The notes below the pieces were generated by a model. It did not search any database and was not told where the DNA came from. It saw only the letters and a program-made list of their open reading frames with translations. Below, one piece after another: positions 8,661 through 28,238 of a stretch of DNA of 64,000 nt. Origin of the DNA: an uncultured Candidatus Saccharibacteria bacterium (lineage in GTDB: Bacteria; Patescibacteriota; CAZHWT01). The stretch lies in contig CAZKPX010000001.1 of assembly GCA_964554805.1 (NCBI GenBank), positions 317,798 to 381,797 on the forward strand, given 5' to 3'. The stretch's first letter is position 1; each line of letters begins with the position of its first letter. Position numbers and translations under genes: made by a program.

Positions 8661-9854
8661 ATGTTTGAATACCAAGAATTGTCACAGCACAAGCCTGGAT
8701 ATGACAGTGATGCTCAATTAATATCTAGCGATGTTGAGCTTGATCATACTCGTTATAACTCAGAAGTTGTTGATTCAGCCCGCCAATTAATAGCAGAACA
8801 GATTAATGATCCAGAGCTATCTGTGCAGCTTATGGATCGAGTGGGGGACATAGAGCAGTTTGGTGGCTGGCACGAATACGATGGAAGCACTCTGCTGGTT
8901 CGGACCGCAGAAATTATTCAGCAATGTGACAATATCACAAGACATGACGGTGCCCCAGAAATCGTCAGGAAGGCTGCAGCATCTTTGGTCAAAAGGAGCA
9001 TAGGTTTGGTTGACTCGGCAGCAAAGATTAATGAATTGCTTAAAGATTCAGATAGTAATTCTCCAGAAATTGACTTGCAAGAGATTGCTAGGGTACAGAG
9101 GGATTTTTATTATACAGTTCGCGCAATTAATCTAATACTTCAGTCAGATGAATCTATTGCAAGCGCATATGGCTACAATTCATCAGATTATATGGATCCA
9201 GAAGATTATACCCATTTGACTGCTGCTGTGGACTCTGCGCCTATGCCAGTGAACGAGGGACGGTTCTTTTCTTTTGAGGTTTGCAACCATTCTTATAACC
9301 CAGAAGGTGATTTTATTGATCTTCCGCAGGAAGACTTAAATGATATTGATGAGTTTCAACACAGGGGCAAAATCAAGCTGTTTATTAGAGAGCAAGGTAA
9401 AAATGCCAGAATTTGTTTTACCTATTTGCCTTATCAGGAATCAGCCAGCGCACACTATGAATCTGAGGTTACTCAATGGAGTGAAGGACGACAAGAGACT
9501 GTAAAGCATATTCAGCGCGGATTTAGAATTAGCATTGATCGAGATTCTCTAGGTATGTCTGTCGACGTCGCGCGTGGAGCGTGGGATGGTGTGCAATTTA
9601 AAAGGAAGGCTGATACAGGAGGCAAGGTGTTCGATCATGGCTCAGGAAGCCATGATTACAAAGCGTTCTCTGAAGATGACATCAAAGAATGGCATGACTT
9701 GGTGTTATGGGTTACTAACAGGGCTGCACAAACTACTGAAATAATGCAGACGATATTCCAGCCAGATGTTGAAACTAGCAATAGATCTTCCGGTTTTGAG
9801 GAATATTTATTAGCAACTCTACCTATGGAATATATAAATCGACCACCGAACTAA
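8661..9854 (+). CDS. hypothetical protein
   Basis: 397-aa ORF. Confidence 0.5.
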   Translation: MFEYQELSQHKPGYDSDAQLISSDVELDHTRYNSEVVDSARQLIAEQINDPELSVQLMDRVGDIEQFGGWHEYDGSTLLVRTAEIIQQCDNITRHDGAPEIVRKAAASLVKRSIGLVDSAAKINELLKDSDSNSPEIDLQEIARVQRDFYYTVRAINLILQSDESIASAYGYNSSDYMDPEDYTHLTAAVDSAPMPVNEGRFFSFEVCNHSYNPEGDFIDLPQEDLNDIDEFQHRGKIKLFIREQGKNARICFTYLPYQESASAHYESEVTQWSEGRQETVKHIQRGFRISIDRDSLGMSVDVARGAWDGVQFKRKADTGGKVFDHGSGSHDYKAFSEDDIKEWHDLVLWVTNRAAQTTEIMQTIFQPDVETSNRSSGFEEYLLATLPMEYINRPPN

Positions 9855-10711
9855 GAAGTGGTGTTTTCCCAGATACTATTGAATAGTTGGCGTAAAGTCT
9901 GAGCGATCTCGGGGTTGGTGATAATGGTAGTCACTACGCCCTGACGGTAGGTGCTGAGGGCAATATTGTCGCCGTAGACCATAATTTGGGCTGGAAAGAG
10001 GTGAGTGCCGAAGTGGCGGACAGCTACATTATTGCTGGCCAGCTGCTCTATTTCTTCTGGACTTAGTCTTTCTGCCTCAGAATAGATGGTTCTGACAGCG
10101 ATGCCTGCGGCGATTTGACGGGCGATTTGTTGGTCAATGGCTGTGGCTGACTGAGGATCATCTCGGTCATGGGCGCTAGGGAATATTAATAGTTCTTCTT
10201 TTTGGCGGATAATGTCATCAAATAGGGTGGTTAGGCCTTGAAGGCCCTCTAGATAGAGGACGCCTGGCTGTTCTTGGGTTAGCCTATAGGTGGATAAAAG
10301 TGACGGCAAGAGGCCTTCCAGGCGGTCAGAGCGGTCTTTGAGAGCCTTTTGTTGGCGGAGAATCATTTGCTTGAGGCTGGATGGGCTTTGGGCGGAGTAG
10401 GTGGTTTTGGCGGTGGAGGTATCTTTGGTGACGAGTTGGAGCTGTTCTAGCTGAGATAGGACCTCGTAGGCGTTGGTGCGGGTGATGTTGATGGCGGTGG
10501 CGAGCTGGGGTGGGGTGGTTTGGGGGGCGGTGAGGAGGTGGAGGTAGGTTTGGGCCTGAGAGGGATTGAGGCCGGCTTGGATTAGTTGGTCCAGGGCGGA
10601 GCTGTGCTCGGTTGTTGAGGATTGAGGGCTGGATGGTTTCGGCATGGGGTTTTGGGTTATGGGTGTCTTGGGGTGTATGGGTATTATAGGGTGTTTAATC
10701 AGTGCTGTCAA
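9851..10711 (-). CDS. TrmB-family transcriptional regulator
   Basis: N-terminal wHTH segment GLNPSQAQTYLHLLTAPQTTPPQLATAINITRTNAYEVLSQLEQLQLV matches the TrmB pattern. Confidence 0.6.
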   Translation of the reverse strand: MTALIKHPIIPIHPKTPITQNPMPKPSSPQSSTTEHSSALDQLIQAGLNPSQAQTYLHLLTAPQTTPPQLATAINITRTNAYEVLSQLEQLQLVTKDTSTAKTTYSAQSPSSLKQMILRQQKALKDRSDRLEGLLPSLLSTYRLTQEQPGVLYLEGLQGLTTLFDDIIRQKEELLIFPSAHDRDDPQSATAIDQQIARQIAAGIAVRTIYSEAERLSPEEIEQLASNNVAVRHFGTHLFPAQIMVYGDNIALSTYRQGVVTTIITNPEIAQTLRQLFNSIWENTTS

Positions 10712-11618
10712 TAGTTTTTTGACAAAATATAAATAGAGTTTATCTGAGATAATAGGCTATTAGTCTATATCTCAGTACCCTAGGCTATTGACATAATGCT
10801 AACTATGGGCTATACTGTGTTCAGTTAAATCGATTAGCTCAGTCAGCTGATTGAGTGATTTAACAAGTACCTTTAAGTTTCTTATAAGCTATTAGTAAGG
10901 ATGAAGTACGTCCGCCAGCTGGCGGATCCCTATATGTTTCATTCTGATTAATAGTAGATATGAATAATGGTGATAACCTGGATCGCTTCGGACGACAGGA
11001 AAGCCTAAATCATTCTACTGAGGCACAGGGTCGCTCTGGCCCGGGGAAACCTGGACCAGGGGATCAGTCTTATCTCCGCCATAATCGACGCGAGACGGCC
11101 TGCTGTATCCATTATTTCCATATCAACTGCTCCACGGCAATACACCCTATCTTTCATCTTCTGATGACGAAAGTATTGCTGGTGGAGAAAGGGGACAGGT
11201 GGTCCAAAAGGAATTACTCAATTCCATATAGATTGCCTGTCCTCAAGCGCAAAATTATTATGGTTGGTAGTTGGCAGTTAGTGGTTGGCGGAGAAAGTCT
11301 CTGCTAACGGATTGCTGAAAACTACTAACGCAATCTGGCAATACCAGATTGTTTCAAGCCTTTGTCTGGTCTGCTTAACCTATCTGAGCTAGACTATCTA
11401 ACCCAATGTTATCCTGAATTTGATTCCGGATATGGGTTGAGATCCTAGTCTAATACTCTGGTTGAGCCGACCAAGCAGATGCTTGTCGGCTCTGTTTGTT
11501 GCCACATGATGGGACGGATGGAGTACACAGCTACGCTGTGTGGTTAGCGGTTGGCAGTTAGCTGTTGGCCGAGAACTGCAGGAAACGAAGAGAGACGTAC
11601 CTTTACAAATCAATAATG

Positions 11619-11713
11619 GCTGCAATATTACCCACCTCTCCGTGGTGCAGCTTCCGCCAGTTGGCGGACCAGCCTTTGGCTGGAGATGAATCCGTATTTA
11701 ACGGTAAACCAAG
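11619..11713 (+). repeat. three-hairpin structured element, b/e family copy 1
   Basis: tccgccagttggcgga hairpin, then ccagcc-ttt-ggctgg, then ccgt-attta-acgg, then taaaccaag; a homolog at 15440-15511 carries compensatory changes. Confidence 0.55.
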
Positions 11714-11737
11714 TGGTAATAGTGGAGACTTTTCGGT

Positions 11738-11844
11738 CCCCTTTAGTGGTTAAAGTGTTTTTGCTGGTCTTACGATTGTTCTCTTCGTCATTGCGAGGAG
11801 CGTAGCGACGCGGCAAGCTGTTTTGTATTAACCATTAAATGGGG
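11738..11844 (+). repeat. R3 structured repeat copy 1 (core tcgtcattgcgagRagcgtagcgacgcggcaa)
   Basis: 14-bp closing helix cccctttagtggttaa / ttaaccattaaatgggg; copies at 14329-14431 and 22101-22205. Confidence 0.6.
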
Positions 11845-11928
11845 CTGAAGGGGGAGAGTCAGAGGTCTGAGACTTGTCTCAGTGCTGATTAGCTCTGCAC
11901 CTGGGTTCGATTCCCGGCAGCTCCACAA
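11841..11928 (+). ncRNA. tmRNA-like tRNA-like domain (88 nt), lacking the mRNA-like body
   Basis: 5' ggggctg pairs with 3' cagctcc, including a G3-U70 pair; T-arm ctggg-ttcgatt-cccgg directly before the acceptor 3' strand; the middle is a simple helix plus hairpin with no tag ORF. Confidence 0.35.
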
Positions 11929-13076: not shown

Positions 13077-13269
13077 AAATCCGTACCCTCGAACCGTCAG
13101 GAAGCGGTATTCGCCAATCTGGCGAAGTCCCCGGTTCAGCTCCTCGGACTACGATCCCCCAAAATCGTGTCCGAGGAGAACCCCTCGGCAGCATCCGCCA
13201 ACTGGCGGAGATACGCCTCCTCGTGGCGCTGCTGGATAGTCTATTGAAAGATGGATGAACTGAGTATCT
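13077..13269 (+). repeat. R1 structured repeat copy 1 (about 193 nt)
   Basis: aaatccg..ccgtcagga..cgccaatctggcg..variable hairpin..tccgccaactggcgga..agatac..GAAA-loop hairpin..gtatct; about 85% identical to 14117-14310 with compensatory substitutions. Confidence 0.65.
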
Positions 13270-13335
13270 AGGAGAAGTTTTAGCGTAAAGATTACTTCTG
13301 TCCCAATTAAGATTCAAGGTTGCTTGAGTTTTGGT

Positions 13336-13470
13336 TGGGGGAGGAGTGGTATTAAGACGCTACTTCTTTCGACCCCGTACCGCGTAAGCGGATTGAGTGA
13401 TTCTCAATAGCCTTGGTCGCTTGATTAAGGCTTTCCTGGCGGTGCAGACCGCCGCCGCCCATAGGAGGGC
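13336..13470 (+). promoter_or_regulatory. R2 conserved structured leader upstream of the ORF starting at 13474
   Basis: Shared with 20419-20547: G-run closing stem, ccgc-GNRA-gcgg hairpin (gtaa vs gtga), variable hairpin, ggcggt-gcag-accgcc hairpin just before the GGAGG RBS. Confidence 0.5.
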
Positions 13471-13473
13471 GCA

Positions 13474-13968
13474 ATGGCTATCGTGAAGACAAGCGATGTT
13501 GGTATCCGAGTCAATCAACTCTCTCTAGGGATGTGGAGAGAGTTGGGAATAGAGAAGCCTTCCAGGTTTTCTTTATGGGACTACCTGGAAGGCCTCGACA
13601 GGTCCGTCGAGGCCTTGGGCCTCAGGGGAGTGGCAGTAGCCTCAATGAGGTTCCTGCCAGACGCTGCGGTTGTCATCGTATGGGAGCTACGACTCCCGTA
13701 CGATGAAGCTAGGCGGTTCGAAAGTCTATCTGATGGGCAGAAGGAGCGATTCCTTCTGCCCTTAGACAAACCGCTTGAATTCTCGGAAAAGATTGTGAGC
13801 CTCAACACGGAGAGAAACACCCCTCCATGGGAGAGACTCACAATCTCTGGGACGGATTCGTCTCAGTCGTATCTTAGCAGGCCGACAGATCTCTTGCTTC
13901 AGTCGGAGGCGGAGGCTGCAATTGCAGCTTACCGCAGTCGGCTCGAGGAGCTGGTCTCCTCGCTGTAG
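13474..13968 (+). CDS. hypothetical protein
   Basis: 164-aa ORF; GGAGG RBS 5 nt upstream; preceded by the R2 leader. Confidence 0.5.
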   Translation: MAIVKTSDVGIRVNQLSLGMWRELGIEKPSRFSLWDYLEGLDRSVEALGLRGVAVASMRFLPDAAVVIVWELRLPYDEARRFESLSDGQKERFLLPLDKPLEFSEKIVSLNTERNTPPWERLTISGTDSSQSYLSRPTDLLLQSEAEAAIAAYRSRLEELVSSL

Positions 13969-14116: not shown

Positions 14117-14310
14117 AAATCCGCAAACCTCTGAACCGTCAGGAGCGGTATTCGCCAATCCGGCGAAGTCCCCGGTTCAACTTCCTCAGGTTGCGACTCC
14201 TTGTCGCACCTGAGGGAGATTCCCTCGGCAGCATCCGCCAACTGGCGGAGATACGCCTCCTCGTGGCGCTGCTGGATAGTCTGTCGAAAGACAGATGAAC
14301 TAAGTATCTA
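14117..14310 (+). repeat. R1 structured repeat copy 2
   Basis: Collinear with 13077-13269. Confidence 0.65.
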
Positions 14311-14431: not shown

Positions 14432-14568
14432 GGGAGAAATCTCTCTGAAGAAAAGAATCAAAACCCTGGGGAAACTCAGGTCTCTGCCCGTCAGCAGAGG
14501 GAGTGAAGTGTAGTGGCCTGGCAGCGTGCCAAAGCCCGTACCGCTTATGCTCCGCATCCTGTGAAAGG

Positions 14569-15250
14569 GATGAACATGAACTGGCAGTTGATTTTTTCAG
14601 TGGCCTTCGTGGCCACTGTGGCGATCGCTATGATTGCCTTCGCCGGCCGAGAAATCGGCGAGGTGAAGGCGGGCGCCGCCGCCGCGGCGCGAAAGGCCGC
14701 GGCTACGGCCGCGGAGGCTACCGCCCAGAAATGGGCGGTGAAGTACCGCAACCTGGAGGTCCTTCGGGACCTCCAGGCTCTCTTCGGAAGCACCCCTGTG
14801 ACGATCTTTGGATCGTCACAGAAGGGGGGCGGTTTCACCGCCCCCGAACGACCGTCCGACCTCGACCTGATGGTCGAGGTTGACGACGAGACCTGGGCGG
14901 AGTGGGCCGCCCAGGTCTACCCGGCAGATCTCGTCGGGGCGGAAGCCCCCCCAGTTTACAACGACAACTGGGGCGGTGGCGAGACCGCTCTGGTTAGGGG
15001 GAGGACAATCACCGTTCTCCCTTACGAGACGGTCTACCCGACGCGCATTGCGCGCCGGGAGGCCGCCCAGGAGATCCTAGGCATCGAGATTGAGCCCCTC
15101 GGGCTCAATCTCGACATCTTCCTCTTCCCGCACTCGTTTGTGCGGGAAGAGATGACCATCCCGGCTTGGGATGGTGCGGAGACCGGAAGGTCTTTCCGGG
15201 AGGAGGTCCTGGCAGGAGTCAAGCTCTCTGAGCTTCAGCCTGCGGACTAA
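14569..15250 (+). CDS. nucleotidyltransferase (Pol-beta/MNT superfamily) with an N-terminal TM helix
   Basis: Motif IFGSSQKGGGFTAPERPSDLDLMVEVDD (GS-x9-SDxDL); N-terminal hydrophobic helix WQLIFSVAFVATVAIAMIAF; Ala-rich linker. Confidence 0.6.
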
Positions 15251-15439
15251 TGACCCTCAGCGCACTGCTGCGCTGGCTGACGACGCATTCGTTGGCGAAA
15301 TGAAGCAGATAGACCTTACCTCGGATCCTTCGCGACTGAGATGGTCGAACCCCGGGGAGCGTAAGCTCTCTGGGGAAACCCATGGCAGCAATTGATTCGC
15401 CTCTACGATGGCTCGCCTAGCCGAAATGCTAGTGCAGGC

Positions 15440-15511
15440 TGGCGCTGCTTCCGCCGGTTGGCGGACTGGTCTTTTGACCAGAGATGAATCCGTCTTGAAC
15501 GGTAAACCAAG
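15440..15511 (+). repeat. three-hairpin structured element, b/e family copy 2
   Basis: tccgccggttggcgga, then ctggtc-tttt-gaccag, then ccgt-cttga-acgg, then taaaccaag. Confidence 0.55.
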
Positions 15512-15661
15512 AATCAAAAATAAACGACATTGATGTCTCCAGGCTACTTGCTGGGGAACAATCAGGGGGCTTTTAACGTTGACCCCTGGTTGTTCCTTGG
15601 GCAGGGAACTAAAGCCAGCCGCGGGTGCGGTAGGCTGAACAATTGCCCTAGAGGAGGCCCT

Positions 15662-16012
15662 ATGGCCACCAAATTCATCAATCTAACCCCTCATACGATC
15701 AATGTTGTTGTTGTTGGGGAGGAGGGTGACGTTGTCGCCTCCTTCCCGGCTTCGGGACAGGAGGCTCGGGTGGCAACCACCCGGGAGCTGTCTCATAACC
15801 TCGACGCCGATGGTGTCGGGATCCCGGTCTTCAGGACCGGGTACGGGGAGATCGAGGGGCTGCCGGCCCCCGAGGCCGGCACTATCTTCGTCGTCTCTGG
15901 TCTGGTGGCTGCGGCCACCGACCGTGATGACGTCGTCTCTCCGGGCGAACTCGTCCGGAACTCCGAGGGGCAGCCGATTGGCTGCCGGGGGTTCTCCCGC
16001 CCCGCTCGATAG
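15662..16012 (+). CDS. hypothetical protein
   Basis: 117 aa from ATG 15662 with a gaggagg RBS; the longer ORF is open from 15530. Confidence 0.45.
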   Translation: MATKFINLTPHTINVVVVGEEGDVVASFPASGQEARVATTRELSHNLDADGVGIPVFRTGYGEIEGLPAPEAGTIFVVSGLVAAATDRDDVVSPGELVRNSEGQPIGCRGFSRPAR

Positions 16013-16209
16013 GGAGAGTTCGGTGGGTGTCCGAACTAAAATAACCACCCCAATTCCAGCCAGTGTGTCTGTGGCTGGGGGTTGGCTGTTGCTTGCAGCT
16101 GACGAAACAAATCTTCGGACATAGGGACCTAACCTGCTGCGGAAGCCTTTGGGTGACTAAGGCAATATCGGTTCCGGCTCCTGGGATGGTGAGATTACTC
16201 ATCGTTCTA

Positions 16210-16303
16210 GGAGACCTTCGTGGCAGCATCCGCCAACTGGCGGAGATACGCCTCCTCGTGGCGCTGCTGGATAGTCTGTTGAAAGATGGATGAACTAAGT
16301 ATC
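16210..16303 (+). repeat. R1 repeat, 3' half only
   Basis: ggcagcatccgccaactggcggagatacgcctcctcgtggcgctgctggatagtctgttgaaagatggatgaactaagtatc. Confidence 0.6.
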
Positions 16304-16658
16304 AGAAGGAAGAGTTTATTTTTGTTCTTAGCCCGTTGCTCTTAGGTGCCTAGTTGACCCTATTGGAAGATAGGGCCAATGGGTTGATTATTTAGCTGAG
16401 AGCAGCGTGGTGGGAATGAAAGAGTTGACGGCTTCTCGGGTGAGGAGCTTTTGGTGTATCTGGGGAGTGAGCAGGTATGCCGGGAGCTCCTCATTGAGGA
16501 GCGCAACCTAGGTGAATTGCAGTAAAAACTCTTTTGGGCAACCCTGCCCGATGCCGTAGGTGCTCTGGATGAAATTGAGCGCTGAATGGAAGTCAGTTAA
16601 AGACTGGCCGAGCAGGGTGGGTATTGTCGCGAGACGCCCCTGGCTCGAAGGAGTTGCT

Positions 16659-19600
16659 GTGAGCAACAATATTCTTCTTCCAATCTCCGCTTATCGGGCG
16701 GAGATTGAAGCAGGGGTGGATGGCGATTCGGTGGTGGTTGTCACCGCTGAAACGGGGACTGGGAAAAGCACGCAAGTGCCGCAGTACATGTTGGAGGCTG
16801 GGTATGATCTGGTAATCACCCAGCCGCGTCGGCTGGCCGCCCGAACAGTGGCCCAGCGAGTGGCCGAGGAAATCGGTCAGGAATTGGGCGGAATTGTTGG
16901 TTATCGGACGGCGGAGGATCGGCGAGATTCGTCGGACACCCGCTGTTTATTCGTGACCGATGGTCTTCAGCTTGTTCGCGAGCTGATGGGTCATGGGAAG
17001 CGGCAAGTTTTGATTCTGGACGAGGTCCATGAATGGAACGAGAACCTGGAAGTTCTCGTTGCCTGGGCCAAGCTCCAGATCGAAACTGGAGCTGATTTCA
17101 AGCTAGTGCTGATGAGCGCTACGCTTGAAGCCGACAAGTTGGCCGCCTATTTTGGTGGTGCGCCAGTTATCTCGGTTCCAGGCCGACTGTTTCCGGTGAC
17201 GGAGCAGAAGCCAGGAGGTTCGGTGGAAGCCGACGTTGCGGAGCTGGTTCGCCAGAGGCGCAATACACTGGTATTCCAGCCGGGCAAGGCGGAGATTGAG
17301 GCCACCTGTGCTGCTTTGCGGCAGATGCAAGTGTGGGCTGAGATTTTGCCTTTGCATGGGCAGTTGACCGCCGAGGAGCAGGCTCGCTGCTTCCGGCATT
17401 ACGGTAAACCCAAGGTGGTGGTGGCATCAAATGTGGCGCAGACCAGCGTCACAATTGACGATATCGACGCCGTTGTCGACTCCGGCATGGAGCGACGGAT
17501 TGAGTTGGTGGATGGGGTTGAGGGCTTGTACCTTAAGCCTATTTCGCTGGCTGATTCTGCGCAGCGCCGGGGTCGAGCTGGTCGGACGAAGGCAGGGATC
17601 TATATCGATCGCTGCCCGAGTGTCGACCGACCGGAGTTTCCGGTGGCCGAGATCCTGCGCAAGCGGCTCGACCAGACGGTACTCCGGTTGGCCAGTGCTG
17701 GGTTTGACATGGAAGAGCTGGAATTCTTCCATCAGCCTGACAAGGCTGACATCCACGAGGCTCGTCAGTCTCTAGTGGCTCTCGGCTGCATGACAGCGGC
17801 TGGAGAAGTCACATCGATGGGGAGACGGGTTAACAAGCTGCCGGTGTCAGTGCAGTATGCGCGGATGCTGGTGGAAGCTGAGCGGTTGGGGGTGGTGGAC
17901 GATCTCCTGACTGTGGCAGCTATCTTGGAGCAGGGCGGTATTACAGTTGCCCCCCCAAGTCGGTCTAATCTGACCCGACCTGATTGGCGCCGAATGGTGC
18001 CGCAGGAGCAGGAGTCGGATATTCTTGGTCAGCTGGTTGTCTATAAAATGGCAGCTGAGATGACCAATGACCAACTCTATCAGAGTGGGGTGGCTCTGAA
18101 GGCCTATTATCGGGCTAAGGAGATCCGCTCTCATTTGGCGAGGGCTCTGGGCGCTCGGTTCCATTCTGGTTCAACGGGTCGCCGCGAGGACATCCTCAAA
18201 GCGGTCTGTGCCGGGATGGTTGACCATCTCTACCATGGCACTGGTGGGGGATGGAAGAATGGTGACGATACTGTCCGAGAACTGGGCAGTTCGTCGCTGG
18301 TTCAGAATGCCAGTTGGTTGGTGGGTCGGCCTTTTGACCTGCAGATCAAGGCACGCTATGGGCATACCACCCTGCGCCTGATCGAGCTGGCGTCAAAGGT
18401 TGAGCCGAACTGGCTGGTCGAAGTCGCTCCGCATTTGGTGGAGCAACAGACTGGCCTGCAACCTCGCTTTGATGACCGGAAGGGGGTGGTGGTTTCGACC
18501 ACCAAGACTCTCTTTAATGGTCAAGAAGTGGGGGAAGAGGAGGTTGTGGATCGGGAGCACCCCGAAGCAGCCGATCTCTTTGCTGGCTGGCTGGCTGGGC
18601 TGAGTCAATCTCGGGCGGAGAGTCTGGGGTTGGAAATTATGGTTCGCAATCTGGCTCGCAACCAACGAGCTAAGGAGCTGAACCAGCGGGCCGGCGAGAC
18701 CCTCTTTGGGGTGGTTGAGCTGCAGGCTTGGTATCTTGCCAAGCTGGAGGGCGCTGGCAACTTTAAGGAGGTGGTGGAGAAGCAGGTGGCTGCGAAGTGC
18801 CTGCTGCCCGATCTCGACCAGGATTTGATTGATCTGGTGCTCCAAGAGCAGCCAGACTCGATTGAGTTGCTGGGCGAAGGCCTGAAAGTAGAGTATGTTG
18901 ATGGCTACGGTCATCGGCGTACTCACCCTAGAGTTCGGTTGTCGGATCAGCAGATTCAGGCGAAGGCCTGGCTTGAGCTGTCTGATGACCAGCCGGTTCG
19001 CCTGTCTGGCGGGCGAATGGTTGAAGTGGCGGTTGAAGTGGCTTATACTACTTTCTCCTCTACTGAGCCATTCCTGCTGAAGGAGCGGGTGCGCGAGTAC
19101 CTGAACCAGAAGCAGTGGGACGCCTGGCATCGACCAGAGGTCTCAGTTGAGGGGCTGGAGTCGGCAGATCAGATTCCGTTTATGACCGCTGTCTATGGAC
19201 AGTGCGTGGTGACGGGGCAGGATCTGCTGGCTTACGGTACCGTTCGGGCACGCCGGTATTGGTCCAGGATTGATCGCTGGCAGCCGGTGTGGGTTCGGTC
19301 TCTTGATGAGGCTGAACGGGTTCGATCCGAGGCAGTGGCAGCACTTGAAGAGGTGCGAGCTGAAGCTGAGGTGAAGGCTATGGAGTCCAGATTGAAGATT
19401 CTGGATGCCCATAACGGCTGGTTCTACCTTGATCGCTCGTCGGAGGCTTATAAGCGCCTTCAGGGCATAATGGTAGAAGTCCCGCCCGCTAGTCGGGAAT
19501 GGTTGATAGAGGCGGGGCGACTGGTTGAAGAGCTGGCTCCTGCCCTTGAGCAGGCCGAGCAAGATGGCTTGGCTGCTGAACAGGCAGCTAAGGCTGAGCA

Positions 19601-20090
19601 ACAGCAGATCGAAGAGAAGGCGGCTGGAATATTGGCTGCGGTCAATCCCAGTGGTCATCACAACTTTGGTTTGGCTGAGGTTCGGTTGGCGAGCCAGTTG
19701 GCCGAACAAGCGGTTCGGCTGGTGGGACAAGCCCGGGCTCAGGCGATCTTCCGAGAGGAAGCGGATGCTTCTTATCGAAGATCGCTCAAATGTCAGCGAA
19801 TCAGAGAGGCTATTCCTGGTTTGTTTGACACGGAAGTTGGGTCGCGGTTCCTCCAGATTCCGGCGCGGTATGTCACCGAATGGTGGTTGCAAGCGACGGC
19901 ATTGTGGTTGGAATCGAATACCACCACGTCGACCGAGGAGTTGCCTGCTCCTGCTCCTGCTCTGATTGAGCTGGAAGAGCAGCCGACGGTGTCAGTTTTG
20001 GCTGTCAAAGAACAGTCTGCCGAGGAGGCAGAAGAGTCTTTTGACAGTCCTATGGCGCTAGCAATGCGTCGGGCCGGGATTAAGTTTTAA
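16659..20090 (+). CDS. DEAH-box (HrpA/HrpB-like) ATP-dependent helicase with a roughly 450-aa C-terminal extension
   Basis: Walker A TGTGKSTQVPQ, DEVHE box, helicase-C and HA2-like region QRRGRAGR; GTG start at 16659 with an aaggag RBS matches the HrpB N-terminus (LPI..); the ORF is open from 16560. Confidence 0.85.
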   Translation: MSNNILLPISAYRAEIEAGVDGDSVVVVTAETGTGKSTQVPQYMLEAGYDLVITQPRRLAARTVAQRVAEEIGQELGGIVGYRTAEDRRDSSDTRCLFVTDGLQLVRELMGHGKRQVLILDEVHEWNENLEVLVAWAKLQIETGADFKLVLMSATLEADKLAAYFGGAPVISVPGRLFPVTEQKPGGSVEADVAELVRQRRNTLVFQPGKAEIEATCAALRQMQVWAEILPLHGQLTAEEQARCFRHYGKPKVVVASNVAQTSVTIDDIDAVVDSGMERRIELVDGVEGLYLKPISLADSAQRRGRAGRTKAGIYIDRCPSVDRPEFPVAEILRKRLDQTVLRLASAGFDMEELEFFHQPDKADIHEARQSLVALGCMTAAGEVTSMGRRVNKLPVSVQYARMLVEAERLGVVDDLLTVAAILEQGGITVAPPSRSNLTRPDWRRMVPQEQESDILGQLVVYKMAAEMTNDQLYQSGVALKAYYRAKEIRSHLARALGARFHSGSTGRREDILKAVCAGMVDHLYHGTGGGWKNGDDTVRELGSSSLVQNASWLVGRPFDLQIKARYGHTTLRLIELASKVEPNWLVEVAPHLVEQQTGLQPRFDDRKGVVVSTTKTLFNGQEVGEEEVVDREHPEAADLFAGWLAGLSQSRAESLGLEIMVRNLARNQRAKELNQRAGETLFGVVELQAWYLAKLEGAGNFKEVVEKQVAAKCLLPDLDQDLIDLVLQEQPDSIELLGEGLKVEYVDGYGHRRTHPRVRLSDQQIQAKAWLELSDDQPVRLSGGRMVEVAVEVAYTTFSSTEPFLLKERVREYLNQKQWDAWHRPEVSVEGLESADQIPFMTAVYGQCVVTGQDLLAYGTVRARRYWSRIDRWQPVWVRSLDEAERVRSEAVAALEEVRAEAEVKAMESRLKILDAHNGWFYLDRSSEAYKRLQGIMVEVPPASREWLIEAGRLVEELAPALEQAEQDGLAAEQAAKAEQQQIEEKAAGILAAVNPSGHHNFGLAEVRLASQLAEQAVRLVGQARAQAIFREEADASYRRSLKCQRIREAIPGLFDTEVGSRFLQIPARYVTEWWLQATALWLESNTTTSTEELPAPAPALIELEEQPTVSVLAVKEQSAEEAEESFDSPMALAMRRAGIKF

Positions 20091-20418
20091 TCTTTGTCGT
20101 GAGGCGGAGGCCTCGTATCAATACTCCAGCGGCTTGTGTTGACCGCTGACTGCCTACAGCGTGTAGGTAGTAAATTCTCAACACATCGGGCCTGTCCGTT
20201 ATTGACGGAGAACGACCCATTGGGTAGGGGGCTAAAACCCCTACCTACTTTACGGCTGCATATACATGCCTCTTCGTGGCGTAGCTAGAAATTCGTTTAT
20301 GTGACGAAGCTAAATGTATGAGAAGTGGAAGAAAGCTTACTTCTGTCTCAATCAGAGCTTGAGACTTTAGGCGTAGATTCCGGATCTAGTCCGGAATGAC
20401 GGCCTTTTGAGCTTTGTT

Positions 20419-20547
20419 TGGGGGGAGAAGTGCTATTAAGACGCTACTTCTTTCGTCCCCGTACCGCGTGAGCGGATTCAGCATCTCAATCCCCGGCCAC
20501 TTGGCTGGGGTTGTTGGCGGTGCAGACCGCCCACGCCTTTGGAGGGC
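20419..20547 (+). promoter_or_regulatory. R2 conserved structured leader copy 2
   Basis: Homolog of 13336-13470, directly upstream of the ORF starting at 20551. Confidence 0.5.
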
Positions 20548-20550
20548 AAA

Positions 20551-20994
20551 ATGATCATCTGCCCCACCATTTACTATTGTCATCCCGGGCAGGAGATACT
20601 TCTGCCTGTGGGGGCGGTCCGTCTGCAAGGGCAGGCGGATGGTTGGTGGGTGGGGGAAGATATCCCTCATCTGCCGTTTGGCCAGAGAAGGGTGAAGGGA
20701 GGGGTCTTCATTGTAGAGGAGGACCTCTCCGATCCCTCGTTCTATGTGGAGGTTGTTATCCTCCACAATGTGAATGAGGGCCTGCCTGGGGCCATCCCCG
20801 CGCTGTTGATTGGGATTGGGGAAGCAGCGCCCCTTGCTGTCCCCAGTAAGAGTGCCTATCGCACTCTGACCGCCGAGGCTACATGTCCTCACTGCGGTTG
20901 TGGTCGCGATTTTAGGCAAAGCTGGGTGGCGGTCGAAGGCTGTTATTTCTGCGATACAGCCATTCGTTCCCCGTTCAGTATGAGCCCAAGCTAG
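20551..20994 (+). CDS. hypothetical protein with a C-terminal Cys4 zinc-ribbon
   Basis: CPHCGCG..x16..CYFCD; GGAGG RBS; the overlapping minus-strand ORF 20386-20919 was rejected. Confidence 0.45.
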   Translation: MIICPTIYYCHPGQEILLPVGAVRLQGQADGWWVGEDIPHLPFGQRRVKGGVFIVEEDLSDPSFYVEVVILHNVNEGLPGAIPALLIGIGEAAPLAVPSKSAYRTLTAEATCPHCGCGRDFRQSWVAVEGCYFCDTAIRSPFSMSPS

Positions 20995-21300
20995 ACTGAA
21001 CCCCGGAGAGCTGGAGGCTCTCTGGGGAACCCAATGGCAGTATCCCCAACTGGCGGAGATACGCCTCCACGTGGCGCTGCTGGAATAGTGCTTATTGTCA
21101 GGCTGAACTAAATTCTGCAGAATAAATCTGCGAATAAATCCAAACAGGATGACATTGAGTATTAACTGAGTATCTGAGGGAGAGTTTTTTCTGTCCGCTT
21201 TAGTTTTTTGATTATGAAAATTGATGCTATGGGTACGTTGTTGCTCGGTGTCGATGGTGAGTTAAAAGATTGAAGCGGGGAGATGAATGATGGAGGCTGG

Positions 21301-21789: not shown

Positions 21790-22007
21790 CGTGGTGGTCG
21801 AGAAAACCCGCGAGGAAGGAGGTTATTACCTTCCTTCCTCGGGGGAATACATTTTATATTGGAGAAGGAGTTGGTTTTGTAAGTGAGAAGAAAGAAGAGA
21901 GATCTTGTGGAGCAACAGGCGACAAGCGACCCCGATAGATCGGGGCAGGCTCGGCGACGAGACCTGGATTTGCGAAGCAAGCAACAGTGAACCTTAATAA
22001 TCAAATA

Positions 22008-22085
22008 ATGGCTGCAATATTACCCATCTCTCCGTGGTGCAGTCTGGATAGTCTGTTGAAAGACGGATGAACTGAGTATCTGACA
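22008..22085 (+). repeat. R1-variant repeat (ggctgcaatattaccca..ccgtggtgcag..ctggatagtctgttgaaagacggatgaactgagtatct)
   Basis: Shares its 5' module with 11619-11650 and its 3' module with R1. Confidence 0.55.
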
Positions 22086-22100
22086 TCAGAGACTTTCTGT

Positions 22101-22205
22101 CTCGCTTAGTGGTTGAGCTAGTTGACGCTTGTTTATGATTGTTCTTCTTGTCATTGCGAGAAGCGTAGCGACGCGGCAATCTAGTCTATTTGACCACTGA
22201 GTGAG
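22101..22205 (+). repeat. R3 structured repeat copy 3
   Basis: Closing helix ctcgcttagtggtt / gaccactgagtgag, with G-U and A-U substitutions relative to copy 2. Confidence 0.6.
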
Positions 22206-22266
22206 GGAGAAATCTCTCTGAAGATCGGATGGCCTGTCAGTCAAGGCGGGTAGGAAGAGTGGTTGG

Positions 22267-24354: not shown

Positions 24355-24637
24355 ACTGATTCTCGCTAAGGATTTAGGTTCTTTGAGAGATGAGACGAGT
24401 GGTCCGGGTTATCGTGGAGGCGATACCCGGACTTTTTCTGTTGTCGGCACTTTGTTGGTATTAAATGTTGCAACAAGTTTTATTATGCCCTTAGGATGTA
24501 TGCTTGAAATTGAGGGGGAGAGCTGATAGAATAAGCCGTGTTCCGGCTATGTAGTGAACAGAGAAAAGAAGACGTGAGAAGTTTTTACAATCCTATATTC
24601 CTCGGTAGCTCTCCGCCAGCTGGCGGAGGCAGAGTAT

Positions 24638-25180
24638 TTGAAAATGGTTGTCTATGCTATTTACAATCAGAAGCATGATAAGATTTATATCGGTCAGACC
24701 GAAGATCTTGATTTGCGTCTCGACCTGCACAATAGTAAAGACTTCATTAAAAGCTACACTGCACGATTTGATGGCGTATGGAAGTTAATTTACCAAGAAG
24801 CAGTTGGTAATCGAGTAGAAGCTCTAACTCGCGAAAAGCAGCTTAAATCTTATCGCGGCAGACAATTCATAAAATCTTATATTCCTCGGTATCCGCCAGC
24901 TGGCGGGAGGAAGCTGCCACTCATAACAATGTGGTATGTCTACTGCCTATATAATTATGATAATGATAAGATTTATATTGGTTATACGGGCGATTTTGAC
25001 AGGCGCATTATTGAACACAATCTCAAGAAAGATAAAAGTTCGTATACTGCAAGGTTCGACGGTGAGTGGGTTTTGATTTATAAGGAAGAAGTCTCCAACA
25101 AATCAGAAGCTGCAAAACGTGAAAAGTCTTTAAAGTCGTTCAGGGGGCGTGAGTATTTACAATCTTATATTCCTCGGTAG
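24638..25180 (+). CDS. tandem double GIY-YIG nuclease (two YhbQ/UPF0213-like modules fused in one ORF)
   Basis: Module 1 VYAIYNQKHDKIYIGQTEDLDLRLDLHNS..SYTARFDGVWKLIY; module 2 VYCLYNYDNDKIYIGYTGDFDRRIIEHN..SYTARFDGEWVLIY; each ends ..SYIPR encoded by aatcttatattcctcggta; the stop codon overlaps the tRNA-Asn 5' end. Confidence 0.7.
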   Translation: MKMVVYAIYNQKHDKIYIGQTEDLDLRLDLHNSKDFIKSYTARFDGVWKLIYQEAVGNRVEALTREKQLKSYRGRQFIKSYIPRYPPAGGRKLPLITMWYVYCLYNYDNDKIYIGYTGDFDRRIIEHNLKKDKSSYTARFDGEWVLIYKEEVSNKSEAAKREKSLKSFRGREYLQSYIPR

Positions 25181-25245
25181 CTCAATGGCAGAGCAGGAAG
25201 CTGTTAACTTCAAGGTTGTTGGTTCGAATCCAGCCCGAGGAGCCA
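25171..25245 (+). tRNA. tRNA-Asn (anticodon GTT)
   Basis: Acceptor tcctcgg/ccgagga; D-stem gctc/gagc; anticodon loop ctGTTaa; T-arm gttgg-ttcgaat-ccagc; gCCA encoded. Confidence 0.85.
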
Positions 25246-25252
25246 TGAATAT

Positions 25253-25277
25253 GGCCACCCTAAAGGTGGCTATTTTC
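25253..25277 (+). terminator. terminator hairpin after tRNA-Asn
   Basis: ggccaccctaaaggtggc then tattttc. Confidence 0.5.
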
Positions 25278-25282
25278 ATGGC

Positions 25283-25375
25283 CTATTGGCATGATTTCGG
25301 CCAACTGCAACTGCAACTGCAGCATGGGCGTCGTGCGAGCGATTTTAATTACGACATCCAGTCCGAGGAGTCAGT
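25283..25375 (+). repeat. R5 repeat, partial copy
   Basis: ..ggcgtcgtgcgagcgattttaattacgacatccagtccgaggag; related to 26285-26425 and 28033-28165. Confidence 0.5.
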
Positions 25376-25463
25376 AAGTAAAGCACCCGACTGAGAGGCC
25401 AAGCTTTTTTCTGGCTGTTTGTGGCCTGGTAAAAATCAATCGGTCTGAAGGTGTTAGTTGGGA

Positions 25464-26120
25464 TTAGAGATTGGCGGAGTTTTTTCTAATGACTGGGGCT
25501 GCCTTCGAGGGCTCAATCTCGGAAATAATCTGATCTACTGTCTGGTTGTCTAGTCTTTTTGCCATTTTATCTCTAAAGATCTCCAGGTCACGAATGTAGC
25601 CATTGGCGTCGCATACTGTATTTGGGTCGCCCCCTATCGAAAGCTGGTATGCTGGACTTTCGTCTTTGGCCAAGTCTATAACGCTGTCGCACCAGCTGCT
25701 AATTGAGGACGAAAATGTTAGATAGAACTTATCCCCGAGACTTTCGTTGCGTATATTTGTTCCGTCAAGACTAAAATCAGTAGATGTGCCATCAATAAAA
25801 GGATTTGGCTCAAACTCTGTTACATCAACACTGCAGAAGATATTGCTGTCTGGCCTCAGACTTAATTCAATATATATTGACTGGCCCTCATTATCGAGAC
25901 AAATGAGCCCTTCCCGATCATGCGAAAAGATGCAGTTGCGGACGGCTTCTAGATATTCGAAGGGGTAGTCGGACACAGCACTCGCCGTAATGTCAAAAAT
26001 GACACCAGTGATAATGCCGTCTCTGGAGCGTATCAAGGCGTGTCCCCACTCAGGCAATGAGGCATTTGAGAGTGATAGAGGGTGTTCACCTAGGGCGGAT
26101 ATCTGCAAGGTGTAGTTCAT
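25464..26120 (-). CDS. hypothetical protein
   Basis: 218-aa ORF. Confidence 0.45.
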   Translation of the reverse strand: MNYTLQISALGEHPLSLSNASLPEWGHALIRSRDGIITGVIFDITASAVSDYPFEYLEAVRNCIFSHDREGLICLDNEGQSIYIELSLRPDSNIFCSVDVTEFEPNPFIDGTSTDFSLDGTNIRNESLGDKFYLTFSSSISSWCDSVIDLAKDESPAYQLSIGGDPNTVCDANGYIRDLEIFRDKMAKRLDNQTVDQIISEIEPSKAAPVIRKNSANL

Positions 26121-26284
26121 ATTGTGGTTATTTTACCATCTACGTGCCTCATATAGTAATCTTTTGTACTAGGATAAAGTTACAACCTTAGTAACTAATC
26201 TGAGGTTTAAGATTTAGGTTTTCTAAGACCGTGACTACTTCTGGCCTTTGGTCAAATTCAATTTCTCGGTTGCGGAAAGCGTCC

Positions 26285-26425
26285 ACTAACGAGAGCCAAA
26301 ATATGGTTATGACCGTAAGCTTGTGGCCATATTTTTTGTTTGTCGGTATGATTTCGAGCAACTGCGAAGGCAGCTTGGGGCGTTGTGCGAGCGATTTTGA
26401 TCGCGACATCCAGTCTGAAGGCCAA
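26285..26425 (+). repeat. R5 repeat copy (caaaaatatgg..ccatattttttg hairpin plus the gatttcgagcaactgcgaagg..gcgttgtgcgagcgatttt module)
   Basis: About 90% identical to 28033-28165. Confidence 0.65.
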
Positions 26426-26532
26426 AGAGGCTGCTAGGTATCTTCGATGTACTAATTAATTTTGCATCTAAACTAGTTCAGATGATGCTCCAGTTTGACT
26501 TAAGACCTATAGTGTAGTATAACAAAGAAATA

Positions 26533-27141
26533 GTGGACAGCTGCAAGGCGCAGCAAACCTGCAATGCATGGAGAGATATCATGTCTAACGCTATGTCGAG
26601 CACTCCTATGATCGATGGCTTCGAGGCTACCAGCCTCATTGCTTCGGGGGTAGTAAGGGCGTTCTTGGACAAAGGGAAATTGTTAGGCGACATCGTGTCG
26701 TACCCTCGAGAAGACCCCATGGGGTTAGGTATCAACACAGCCACTATCTCAAGTGCCGCAGCGCTTGCTTCTTTGATGGATGGAGGTATATGCTCGGCAA
26801 GGACACGAGAGCATAGGTTCTATCGACAGCAGGGTCCGTCCCAGCAGGTGTTGGAGGTATGCCTGCTTGGCATTCAACGCTTCAGCCAAGACCAAATTGA
26901 ATGGACAGCCAAGCTTCTTCGAGTTAAAACGTCGAAGCATCCTCGCCTTCAAGGTTTTGTGAGCTTGTATTTTGCGGTCGCGGCCAGAGGAGCAAGTAAC
27001 TACTGCTTCGAGCCACACTTCAAAGACAAGGAAGGTATGCTGCAAACACTTCGGGGGACCTACAAGGAAGATGGTTTGGTTAACTATCTGTTGTCAAACC
27101 TCGACCTCTTGTGGTTTCAGGCGGAGATTCGCGAAGAGTAG
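26533..27141 (+). CDS. hypothetical protein
   Basis: 202-aa ORF; the likely start is the internal ATG at 26581. Confidence 0.4.
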   Translation: MDSCKAQQTCNAWRDIMSNAMSSTPMIDGFEATSLIASGVVRAFLDKGKLLGDIVSYPREDPMGLGINTATISSAAALASLMDGGICSARTREHRFYRQQGPSQQVLEVCLLGIQRFSQDQIEWTAKLLRVKTSKHPRLQGFVSLYFAVAARGASNYCFEPHFKDKEGMLQTLRGTYKEDGLVNYLLSNLDLLWFQAEIREE

Positions 27142-27275
27142 GGAGATTGCTTCTGAACAAAATTCAGAGTATTTAGGCCATTCTATTTAAAGAATGGCCT
27201 AAATTTTGATTTACTATATAAATTGACCTCAACTGTTGCATAAGACTCTAGTTATTCATCTGCTATAATTTCCCT

Positions 27276-28007
27276 ATGATAAATGAATCTGCATTTTATG
27301 AATCAATTAACCAAAAGAGGATCTTTTGCTGCTTAACCGAACCTGTGGAAAAGGCAAATAAGATAATTATAATGAGTCATGGGTTTAGGGGTACAAGTGT
27401 AGGGCCGGCTAGGACATTCGTGGACTTTGCTCGACTCTTGGCGAGCAGTGGCTACGCCTCATTGCGTTATGATCAACCTAATAGCGGGAACTCTGAAGGT
27501 GATTTTCTCCAGTCCTCATTTAGTGAATGGGTAGACACTGCAGTATATCTTGCTAAGCAATATTTGGATCAGGGCTATGAGGTGGCGCTGCTTGGTCAAA
27601 GTATGGGTGCATCCACATCAGTTATTGCTTCATATCGAGAACCAATTAGAAATAAAATAAGCGGTCTATTGCTCTGGGTGCCCGATCCAAAATCTACATT
27701 CAACAAGCCTGCGGAGAAGGTGTTTGAAGAAGGTGGTCAGTTGTATCGAGGTCGATTTTGGAAAGAAGCAAGAGATGCGAACTTTTTTGCAGCTTTGGAG
27801 AGTTTCTCTAACCCAATACATTTAGTTTATGGTGAACATGATCGCTACGTTGAACCAGTACTAATTAAGCAGGTGTCTGAAATGGTACAACAGAAAGGGC
27901 AGGAGACTTTAGTGTTACCAGGGCAAGACCACAGTCCCTGGGATCCAGCATTGTGCCAGAAGGTTTATCAAGCAGAATTAGCCGCGCTAGATAAAGCATT
28001 TTCATAA
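27276..28007 (+). CDS. alpha/beta-hydrolase fold protein
   Basis: GQSMG nucleophile elbow (GxSxG); HGFRG oxyanion region. Confidence 0.65.
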   Translation: MINESAFYESINQKRIFCCLTEPVEKANKIIIMSHGFRGTSVGPARTFVDFARLLASSGYASLRYDQPNSGNSEGDFLQSSFSEWVDTAVYLAKQYLDQGYEVALLGQSMGASTSVIASYREPIRNKISGLLLWVPDPKSTFNKPAEKVFEEGGQLYRGRFWKEARDANFFAALESFSNPIHLVYGEHDRYVEPVLIKQVSEMVQQKGQETLVLPGQDHSPWDPALCQKVYQAELAALDKAFS

Positions 28008-28032
28008 ACCACAATTCGAAAATCATCCCAGG

Positions 28033-28165
28033 CGCGGAGCCAAAAATATGGTTATGACCGTAAGGTTGTGGGTGGCCATATTTTTTGTTTGTCGGTATGA
28101 TTTCGAGCAACTGCGAAGGCAGCTTGGGGCGTTGTGCGAGTGGTTTTAATCGTGGCATTTAGCCT
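28033..28165 (+). repeat. R5 repeat copy
   Basis: See 26285-26425. Confidence 0.65.
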
Positions 28166-28238
28166 GAAGCTAAGAGTTGGCTGATGCGCTTTACAATGCT
28201 GGGGCTCTACCTTATAATCAGTCGGCTATTCGGCATTC

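Follow-up and report, generated by a model that had tools for sequence, protein, structure and literature searches.

A Crn4b-type ring nuclease and a putative nucleotidyltransferase in a variable slot beside an HrpA-like DEAH helicase on a probable patescibacterial chromosome

Ring nucleases and the SAM-AMP phosphodiesterase NrN have so far been studied either as phage anti-CRISPRs or as off-switches in type III CRISPR loci. The family Unk_01 is Crn4, a ring nuclease of new fold that cuts cyclic tri-, tetra- and hexa-adenylate (cA3, cA4 and cA6); Crn4b cuts cA3 and cA4, and the products are oligomers with 2',3'-cyclic phosphates, not mononucleotides (PMC12830947). The family also occurs in phages, with 11 phage genomes reported, and in plasmids, where it likely acts as an anti-CRISPR (PMC12830947). 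NrN belongs to the DHH nanoRNase-like family, and the enzyme of Bacteroides fragilis is specific for SAM-AMP and cuts neither pApA nor cyclic oligoadenylates (cOA) (PMC10600005). HrpA of Escherichia coli splits and rescues collided ribosomes (PMC11419001). Described here is a locus at which a Crn4b gene, preceded by a gene for a putative nucleotidyltransferase (NTase), lies beside the gene of an HrpA-like DEAH helicase. It is located on contig CAZKPX010000001.1 of assembly GCA_964554805.1, deposited for an uncultured Candidatus Saccharibacteria bacterium, within the 64,000 nucleotides (nt) at positions 317,798 to 381,797 (hereafter the window, to which all coordinates refer).

The window is a piece of bacterial chromosome that encodes DnaG, RpoD, FtsH, PolA and six tRNAs. 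The relatives of the helicase and the local synteny indicate that it probably belongs to a member of the Patescibacteria (also named Candidate Phyla Radiation, CPR). The original prediction had proposed an accessory module of four genes, encoding a membrane-anchored Pol-beta NTase, a small ORF (open reading frame), a giant DEAH helicase and a Zn-ribbon protein, each separated by structured RNA repeats. Its observation was partly confirmed and its interpretation partly supported. The four co-oriented ORFs exist on the + strand with small corrections of their coordinates: the NTase start, predicted at 14569, was one position off, and the small ORF has 116 instead of 117 aa. The NTase-Crn4 pair and the linkage of Crn4 to the helicase (in eight other genomes) do recur, but the four genes were not found together in any other genome. 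The locus is therefore read here as a composite and not as a four-gene system, namely as a messenger-degrading unit in a variable slot coupled to an HrpA-like helicase, a reading that we hold to be evenly poised between right and wrong.

The evidence that carries this reading comes from the ORFs of 85 helicase loci of other genomes, which were clustered. The recurrent order is a large variable protein (family c5), a divergent TrmB-like regulator, a variable slot and the helicase; the window has the same order. In 15 further loci a c5 protein is encoded upstream of the helicase, with 12-20% identity between members and no match in Pfam, NCBIfam or PADLOC. The regulator is of the same family and in the same orientation in 17 other helicase loci. 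Within the slot or just past the helicase, Crn4 was found in eight loci, NrN in ten (PDB 9lq9, E 3e-44), AAA-Csx3 in five (E 8e-51), Mvol_0529-family proteins in four and an uncharacterised protein called c-domain in three; NrN occurs fused to Crn4 and to the c-domain. At least one of Crn4, NrN, AAA-Csx3 or Mvol_0529, all of them accessory families of type III CRISPR, is present in 20 of the 85 loci. The slot proteins are all encoded on the helicase strand, at most 5.6 kb upstream or directly downstream, and no CRISPR array was found within 10 kb in any helicase locus. Another family of this neighbourhood, c12 (305-550 aa, motifs VRDHH and DPDxDG), lies upstream of the helicase in seven of eight loci and downstream in the eighth (L052; such labels denote the loci fetched). 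No known relatives of c12 were found; it may be another phosphoesterase.

The small ORF, which had been left without a known family, is by sequence comparison a Crn4b ring nuclease, a known kind, and this identity is solid. It matches the solved Crn4b (PDB 9r7b) with E 2.3e-16 over 108 of its 116 aa (residues 4-111), Crn4a (PDB 9sma) with E 1e-6, and the PADLOC families Unk_01 (E 4e-22) and C3a69. T9, H11 and R99 align to the catalytic Thr13, His15 and Arg112 (Crn4a numbering); across 37 homologs neither H11 nor R99 varies, and T9 hardly does. The nearest relatives of the window protein are metagenomic and viral Crn4b proteins. Crn4b relatives were detected on 379 IMG/VR viral contigs or loci, far above the 11 phage genomes reported before, and are located there in phage-like arrays of small genes. 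One of the IMG/VR loci (L185-L264), L211, has the Crn4b gene followed by a gene of family c99, which also occurs in helicase loci. Six groups or more can be distinguished among the Crn4 genes linked to the helicase by best BLAST matches, that is, by identity of short proteins and not by a tree, and since the closest outsiders of each group are viral or metagenomic Crn4b proteins, this suggests that Crn4 was recruited repeatedly to helicase loci. The Crn4 gene of the window is not sited in a type III CRISPR locus or beside a cOA-activated effector.

The gene upstream of Crn4 encodes the putative NTase, which is called from a GTG at 14513 with 245 aa in public data. Its N terminus is hydrophobic, and an AlphaFold2 model places a helix at residues 4-24. 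The motifs FGSS-x14-SDLDLMVEVD and a third acidic site, DIFLF, are conserved in all four aligned members of the family. They match the Pol-beta pattern hG[GS]-x(9-15)-[DE]h[DE]h with a third acidic residue, the spacing being toward the long end. Profile searches returned Pfam NTP_transf_2 and MTPAP, both below threshold, and the top Foldseek list was enriched in minimal nucleotidyltransferases (MNT), terminal uridylyltransferases, AadA and CdnE, with cGAS also appearing (best E 0.29). The assignment to the Pol-beta type is thus tentative. Only four relatives are known, three from a search of 5.8 billion sequences and one on contig L265. The NTase gene is followed by Crn4 in the window and in L265, where the Crn4 is 66% identical to that of the window, and by a c-domain protein in L266 and L092; in L091 an ORF of 182 aa of no known family follows. 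Four of the five known NTase genes are thus directly followed by Crn4 or a c-domain protein at 277-411 nt, which, judged from gene order and sequence, is a genuine recurring pair and links the NTase to the families of the helicase slot. The c-domain family is about 300 aa long, is characterised by the motifs DPQH, RxDxDSxGAM and GWGGSP..GSPQG, and has no match in Pfam, PADLOC or PDB.

Upstream starts are possible for the helicase, and public gene callers give 1143 and 1173 aa. Its DEAH/RHA core is complete (RecA1, RecA2, winged helix, ratchet and OB) and aligns with PDB HrpA at E 5.8e-72 (HrpA chain residues 81-731) with about 30% identity, and is also close to the spliceosomal DHX8 and Prp22. 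Pfam identified DEAD, Helicase_C and a weak HA2_C (residues 431-469), and no further domain C-terminal to that match. The protein had been described as HrpB-like. It scores far below the NCBIfam cut-offs for HrpA (TIGR01967, 308.5 bits against 722.75; NF008348, 267 against 1400) and HrpB (TIGR01970, 253.9 against 546, limited to residues 40-463), but it appears HrpA-like throughout. Both quoted strings of the C-terminal part occur in the translation. The roughly 450 C-terminal aa had been taken for a charged extension rich in coiled coil, and their novelty was not confirmed: the C terminus was modelled with a mean confidence (pLDDT) of 81.6, and the one significant Foldseek match obtained with it is to HrpA, in full length, on the disome of E. 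coli (9gft_B, E 4.9e-4, probability 0.98), in an alignment between flexible multi-domain chains with a TM-score of 0.18 and a root-mean-square deviation of 37 A. The tail is a variable coiled coil. On sequence and model the helicase is placed in a clade with an HrpA-like core and an apparently HrpA-like C-terminal region.

More than 4000 homologs of the helicase were found, with 505 loci in species genomes. The clade consists mostly of Saccharibacteria, Kaiser-, Uhr-, Falkow- and Absconditabacteria and other CPR members. It also includes metagenome-assembled genomes labelled Obscuribacterales, Bdellovibrionota, Clostridia and Gammaproteobacteria, and two actinomycetes (about 60% identity). The N-terminal 650 aa are 60-72% identical across groups, and about 280 aa of the extension are conserved too. 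Among known phages and plasmids no close relative was found. The G+C content of the helicase gene exceeds that of its flanks in 74 of 78 loci, by a median of 8 points. In the two actinomycetes, Actinoallomurus (L029) and Spirillospora (L033), the composition of the gene matches the high-G+C genome. The GC-rich gene and the actinomycete copies may reflect exchange between CPR bacteria and actinobacterial hosts.

Catalytic RNAs are located between such genes in other genomes, which agrees with the structured RNAs of the original prediction. The spacers between the NTase and its partner in L092, L265 and L266 contain one type III hammerhead ribozyme each, with a complete core and an Rfam E value of about 1e-6. 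A model built from these three copies identified about 20 more hammerheads with 48-68 bits in 14 helicase loci, all on the coding strand; four of them were confirmed independently by Rfam. Taken together, the hammerheads of the NTase loci and the helicase loci are sited in the short gaps between NTase and Crn4, between Crn4, Mvol_0529 and AAA-Csx3, between c10 or c12 and the helicase, and past the helicase. Control loci of viral and metagenomic origin, 1.35 Mb in all, yielded no hammerhead. The coordinates of these and the other features are given in Table 1.

Table 1. Location of genes, ribozymes and structured elements in the window and, where a locus label is given, in related loci
Feature	Position	Strand	Remarks
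Crn4b-type ring nuclease (cyclic-oligoadenylate phosphodiesterase), 116 aa	15662..16012	+	PDB 9r7b, PADLOC Unk_01
Putative membrane-anchored Pol-beta-type NTase, 226 aa	14570..15250	+	ATG; alternative GTG start 14513
DEAH/RHA helicase, 1144 aa	16656..20090	+	Core residues 8-623, nt 16677-18524; C-terminal region nt 18573-20087
Large poorly conserved protein c5, 764 aa	6271..8565	+	Synteny partner upstream of helicase
TrmB-like winged-helix regulator	9851..10711	-	Pfam TrmB, E 8e-10; divergent from gene array
Type III hammerheads, NTase loci	L092:1292-1346, L265:554-608, L266:827-881	coding strand	
Type III hammerheads, helicase loci (examples)	L021:9824-9878, L021:13774-13828, L068:4436-4490, L068:5033-5087	coding strand	
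c-domain proteins	L092:1362-2249, L266:904-1788, L001:5523-6503, L013:7354-8268, L032		After NTase, or fused to NrN upstream of helicase
c12 family	L006:6214-7491, L017:3829-5481, L053:479-1615 and 5 more loci		Beside helicase
ORFan o164	13474..13968	+	Behind leader C
Zn-ribbon ORFan, 147 aa from ATG	20551..20994	+	CPHCG...CYFC at C-terminus
Repeat modules G and B, left copy	11608..11844	+	Right copy 21999-22224
tmRNA-like tRNA-like domain, 88 nt, without mRNA-like part	11841..11928	+	Rfam tmRNA
Structured 5' leader C	13324..13476	+	Ends GGAGG-N6-ATG of o164; copy 2 at 20407-20553 before Zn-ribbon ORF
Repeat module A, three-way-junction fold	14209..14308	+	Other copies 13169-13268, 16204-16303, 21017-21116
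HDV-like self-cleaving ribozyme candidate	20255..20321	+	165 nt past helicase stop codon; Rfam RF02682

The genes of the window lie almost all on the + strand, and it has a strongly positive GC skew. From o164 to the ORF o90 extends a block with a G+C content at third codon positions (GC3) of 0.62-0.78 and a GC skew of 0.03-0.19, compared with 0.47-0.51 and 0.26-0.39 for dnaG, rpoD, ftsH and polA. Because of this deviant GC3 and skew, which bear out the predicted island, the block was probably acquired from outside. The strongest deviation within it is that of NTase and Crn4. The two remaining members of the array are ORFans. The ORF o164 forms a singleton cluster with no family match, no PDB match and no counterpart in any of the fetched loci. 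The Zn-ribbon ORF, whose true start is probably the ATG given in Table 1 as judged from the sequence, matched only itself among 1.84 billion representative proteins, and its predicted conservation as a member of a module is not upheld.

Structured repeats are present in each gap between the four genes, as predicted and as seen in self-BLAST and repeat scans. Several fold far better than shuffled sequences (z -3.3 to -5.5). The mosaic spans 11.6-22.4 kb and is wider than the four genes. The repeats match solely contigs of identical sequence and none of the other fetched loci. Copies of modules G and B flank the deviant block on both sides (11608-11650 and 21999-22042 are 95% identical, 11725-11819 and 22089-22182 are 79% identical), and the copies of B fold with z -4.1 and -5.5. 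Leader C, with 79% identity between its copies over 154 nt and z -4.5 and -4.1, retains one hairpin via compensatory changes; o164 and the Zn-ribbon ORF have leader, ribosome-binding site and ATG in common. From this arrangement leader C looks like a portable expression cassette for ORFans. Module A has a consensus fold in which three pairs are retained despite changes on both sides, with z values between -1.4 and -3.3 for the + strand, compared with 0.1 for the - strand.

The element at the left edge of the deviant block resembles transfer-messenger RNA (tmRNA) with 42.8 bits (gathering cut-off 47; E 1.9e-14), 8 nt standing in place of 280 model positions. A G3:U70 acceptor pair was read off the sequence, and a T-arm is present. 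This element is located 4.7 kb upstream of a helicase that is related to a ribosome-rescue factor. The candidate ribozyme of the hepatitis delta virus (HDV) type scores 35.1 bits (gathering cut-off 44; E 0.0016 when only the region is scanned, 0.0085 with the whole window). Its P1, P3 and P4 are aligned, no homologous copies for covariation are available, and the complement for a P2 pseudoknot, AUAUACA/UGUAUGA, was found by eye, outside the scoring of the model. The same relative position past the helicase is occupied by hammerheads in L008, L021 and L036.

Further features were noted across the window. The GC-rich palindrome CCGCC-N4-GGCGG occurs in ten copies (0.04 expected) at 10912, 11654, 13195, 14235, 15451, 16230, 24613, 24893, 44600 and 48980, six of them within 10.9-16.3 kb. 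A second set of intergenic repeat families lies at 24580-28170. Within that part the ORF 24638-25180 matches PADLOC models of a homing endonuclease and PDC-S14 and overlaps the start of a tRNA-Asn gene (25171-25245). An ORF of 990 aa (44781-47753) with Cornifin-like proline-rich matches contains more than 20 tandem units of 24 nt at 45964-46659, where the local G+C content is 64% and the AT skew is strong.

The composite reading would comprise three layers. These are a two-gene unit in which the putative membrane-anchored NTase precedes Crn4b; the helicase with its interchangeable flank proteins, of which Crn4, NrN and the Csx3 type degrade cOA or SAM-AMP messengers, Mvol_0529 on the same flanks being assigned no function; and the ORFans o164 and Zn-ribbon ORF behind a common portable leader. 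The block of the window would occupy the variable slot between the conserved regulator and the helicase. Crn4b, by cutting cA3 and cA4 to linear products as shown for its family, would turn messenger-activated effectors off; because Thr9, His11 and Arg99 are conserved, the window protein is expected to have this activity. By analogy with its E. coli counterpart, the helicase may act on RNA or on stalled ribosomes. Slot and helicase together would then form a messenger-clearing and translation-recovery unit for counter-defence or immune reset, and ribozymes would cut long transcripts into single-gene mRNAs. The recurrence of the neighbourhood of helicase, messenger degraders and ribozymes is a real finding; the mechanism of coupling we infer.

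Several observations weigh against the composite reading. The genes of the window are spaced by 411-644 nt with terminator-like hairpins, and no hammerhead with a CUGAUGA...GAAA core and three stems was found there by Rfam at E up to 10, the best score of the custom model with filters off being 8.7 bits; co-transcription is therefore unproven. The genomes are strongly co-oriented, so that a common strand is weak evidence. No Cas10, CARF or CBASS (cyclic-oligonucleotide-based antiphage signalling system) gene is located in the 64 kb as a source of the messenger. Defence scans of the 55 ORFs of the window detected no defence system and no Cas10, CARF or other defence match, PADLOC placing the small ORF in a family and no other gene of the four. 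Neither a CRISPR array nor a type III CRISPR-Cas locus (Cas10 plus array) was found in the window, and CBASS gave no PADLOC match, the NTase domain being too small for a CD-NTase. For the NTase, the motifs and a hydrophobic N terminus are present, but no search returned a match that is significant by profile or by fold. The gene that comes after the NTase-Crn4 pair of L265 encodes a membrane protein on the minus strand and is not the helicase. None of 160 other Crn4b loci contains the helicase, NrN or the NTase, the groups of helicase-linked Crn4 are defined by BLAST identity and not by a tree, and about three quarters of the helicase loci are without messenger-degrading neighbours.

The last of these points also speaks for a serious rival, which we nevertheless consider unlikely: the helicase would be a housekeeping RNA or ribosome-rescue helicase of the HrpA type, and its flank a recombination hot spot that collects unrelated accessory genes of mobile origin, without functional coupling. 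The original prediction had named a housekeeping HrpA or HrpB ortholog as its own refutation, and part of this is found, in that the synteny is fixed across CPR genomes, the core keeps 60-72% identity from one CPR class to another, and the C-terminal region appears HrpA-like. The nearest relatives of the window Crn4 belong to a family common on viral contigs, and repeats and deviant composition suggest a plastic region. A hot spot does not easily explain why three unrelated messenger-degrading families and Mvol_0529 recur at one position, apparently acquired independently, nor the elevated G+C content of the helicase gene in 74 of 78 loci and a GC3 and skew in the window unlike those of housekeeping genes. 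The idea of a single system, dedicated to defence or RNA processing and made up of NTase, small ORF, helicase and Zn-ribbon protein, has the common orientation, the similar composition and the two recurring linkages in its favour. It is most improbable and largely refuted already, as the four genes do not co-occur elsewhere, the Zn-ribbon ORF has no homolog, PADLOC finds no system, and none of the four NTase relatives adjoins a helicase on the available sequence.

Quite unlikely, too, is a self-contained messenger pair in which the NTase would make an oligonucleotide signal, Crn4 or the c-domain protein would degrade it, and the helicase would be effector or target. The pairing in four of five NTase genes fits this, as do the cleavage by Crn4 of cA3, a product of some CD-NTases (PMC12830947), and the presence of CdnE and cGAS among the weak fold matches; against it, the catalytic domain of about 150 aa has the size of a minimal NTase and not of a CD-NTase, no fold or profile match is significant, no effector was recognised and the NTase family is tiny. 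Nucleotide salvage, by which helicase, DHH-type and ring nucleases would degrade imported or spent RNA to mononucleotides, draws on the inability of CPR bacteria to synthesize nucleotides, as stated in a preprint (bioRxiv 10.64898/2026.07.13.738296), and on the DHH nanoRNase-like kinship of NrN (PMC10600005). This is very improbable: NrN of B. fragilis is SAM-AMP-specific (PMC10600005), the Crn4 products with their cyclic phosphates are not mononucleotides (PMC12830947), and the patchy distribution and foreign composition fit a core pathway poorly. The bolder form of the composite reading, a CRISPR-independent module of Patescibacteria that combines the HrpA-like helicase with interchangeable messenger-destroying enzymes and ribozyme-punctuated transcripts, is distinctly unlikely, if somewhat less so than the messenger pair. 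It has two versions: either these episymbionts defuse messenger immunity, be it their own, that of a phage or that of the host, or the rare membrane NTase produces a new messenger, which is then cleared by Crn4 or the c-domain protein.

What is new is that, in bacteria that are ultra-small and mostly poor in CRISPR, three families of the type III off-switch kind are repeatedly found next to one helicase clade, apparently through recurrent acquisition and separated by self-cleaving ribozymes. No paper linking ring nucleases or hammerheads with Patescibacteria was found in a literature search. If the linkage is functional, it would connect the clearance of messengers with an RNA or ribosome helicase of the HrpA type. 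It would also provide access to a very widespread uncharacterised helicase of the CPR, a new family of NTases and the c-domain family of about 300 aa, and a clear bacterial case of ribozyme-processed operons.

Among described systems, the solved Crn4b (PDB 9r7b; Chi et al., Nat Commun 2025, PMC12830947) is alike over the full length, with NLTPH and the catalytic Arg conserved and a chain of 128 residues, close to the 116 aa found here. Its window counterpart differs in context, since neither a type III CRISPR locus nor a gene for Can2, Csm6 or any CARF protein lies in the 64 kb, and since its partner is a putative NTase and its neighbour a DEAH helicase, both absent from PMC12830947. Minimal nucleotidyltransferases such as MntA of MNT-HEPN have in common with the NTase the G-S...D-x-D motif and the small size of the catalytic domain, and they provide its best fold matches, which are not significant; they differ in that the window protein carries a membrane helix at its N terminus as well as a long coiled helix, and shows no significant similarity to them, and in that their partner is a HEPN protein instead of Crn4 or a c-domain protein. 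E. coli HrpA (PMC11419001; PDB 9gft) resembles the helicase in its complete DEAH/RHA core and supplies the one significant fold match of the C terminus, whereas the window protein is about 30% identical, falls below the equivalog cut-off, has a variable coiled-coil tail and belongs to a mostly patescibacterial clade. Phage acr-aca operons with DEAD/DEAH helicases (PMC13551039) likewise bring together a helix-turn-helix regulator, small genes of the anti-CRISPR type and a helicase; their helicase is of COG4889 and their context phage or prophage, whereas the window is chromosomal with synteny conserved across CPR genomes. Alike in gene content are the accessory off-switches of type III CRISPR (NrN with CorA, Csx3/Crn3 with AAA, Crn1-4), in which the same families cluster together under the same PADLOC names (C3a116/DHH_CorA, C3a67 AAA-Csx3, C3a69/Unk_01 and Mvol_0529-fam). 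No CorA, Cas10 or CARF effector was detected among the scanned conserved neighbour families or in the window. Here the centre of the cluster is a helicase, CRISPR arrays are absent from the surrounding 10 kb, and hammerhead ribozymes lie between the genes.

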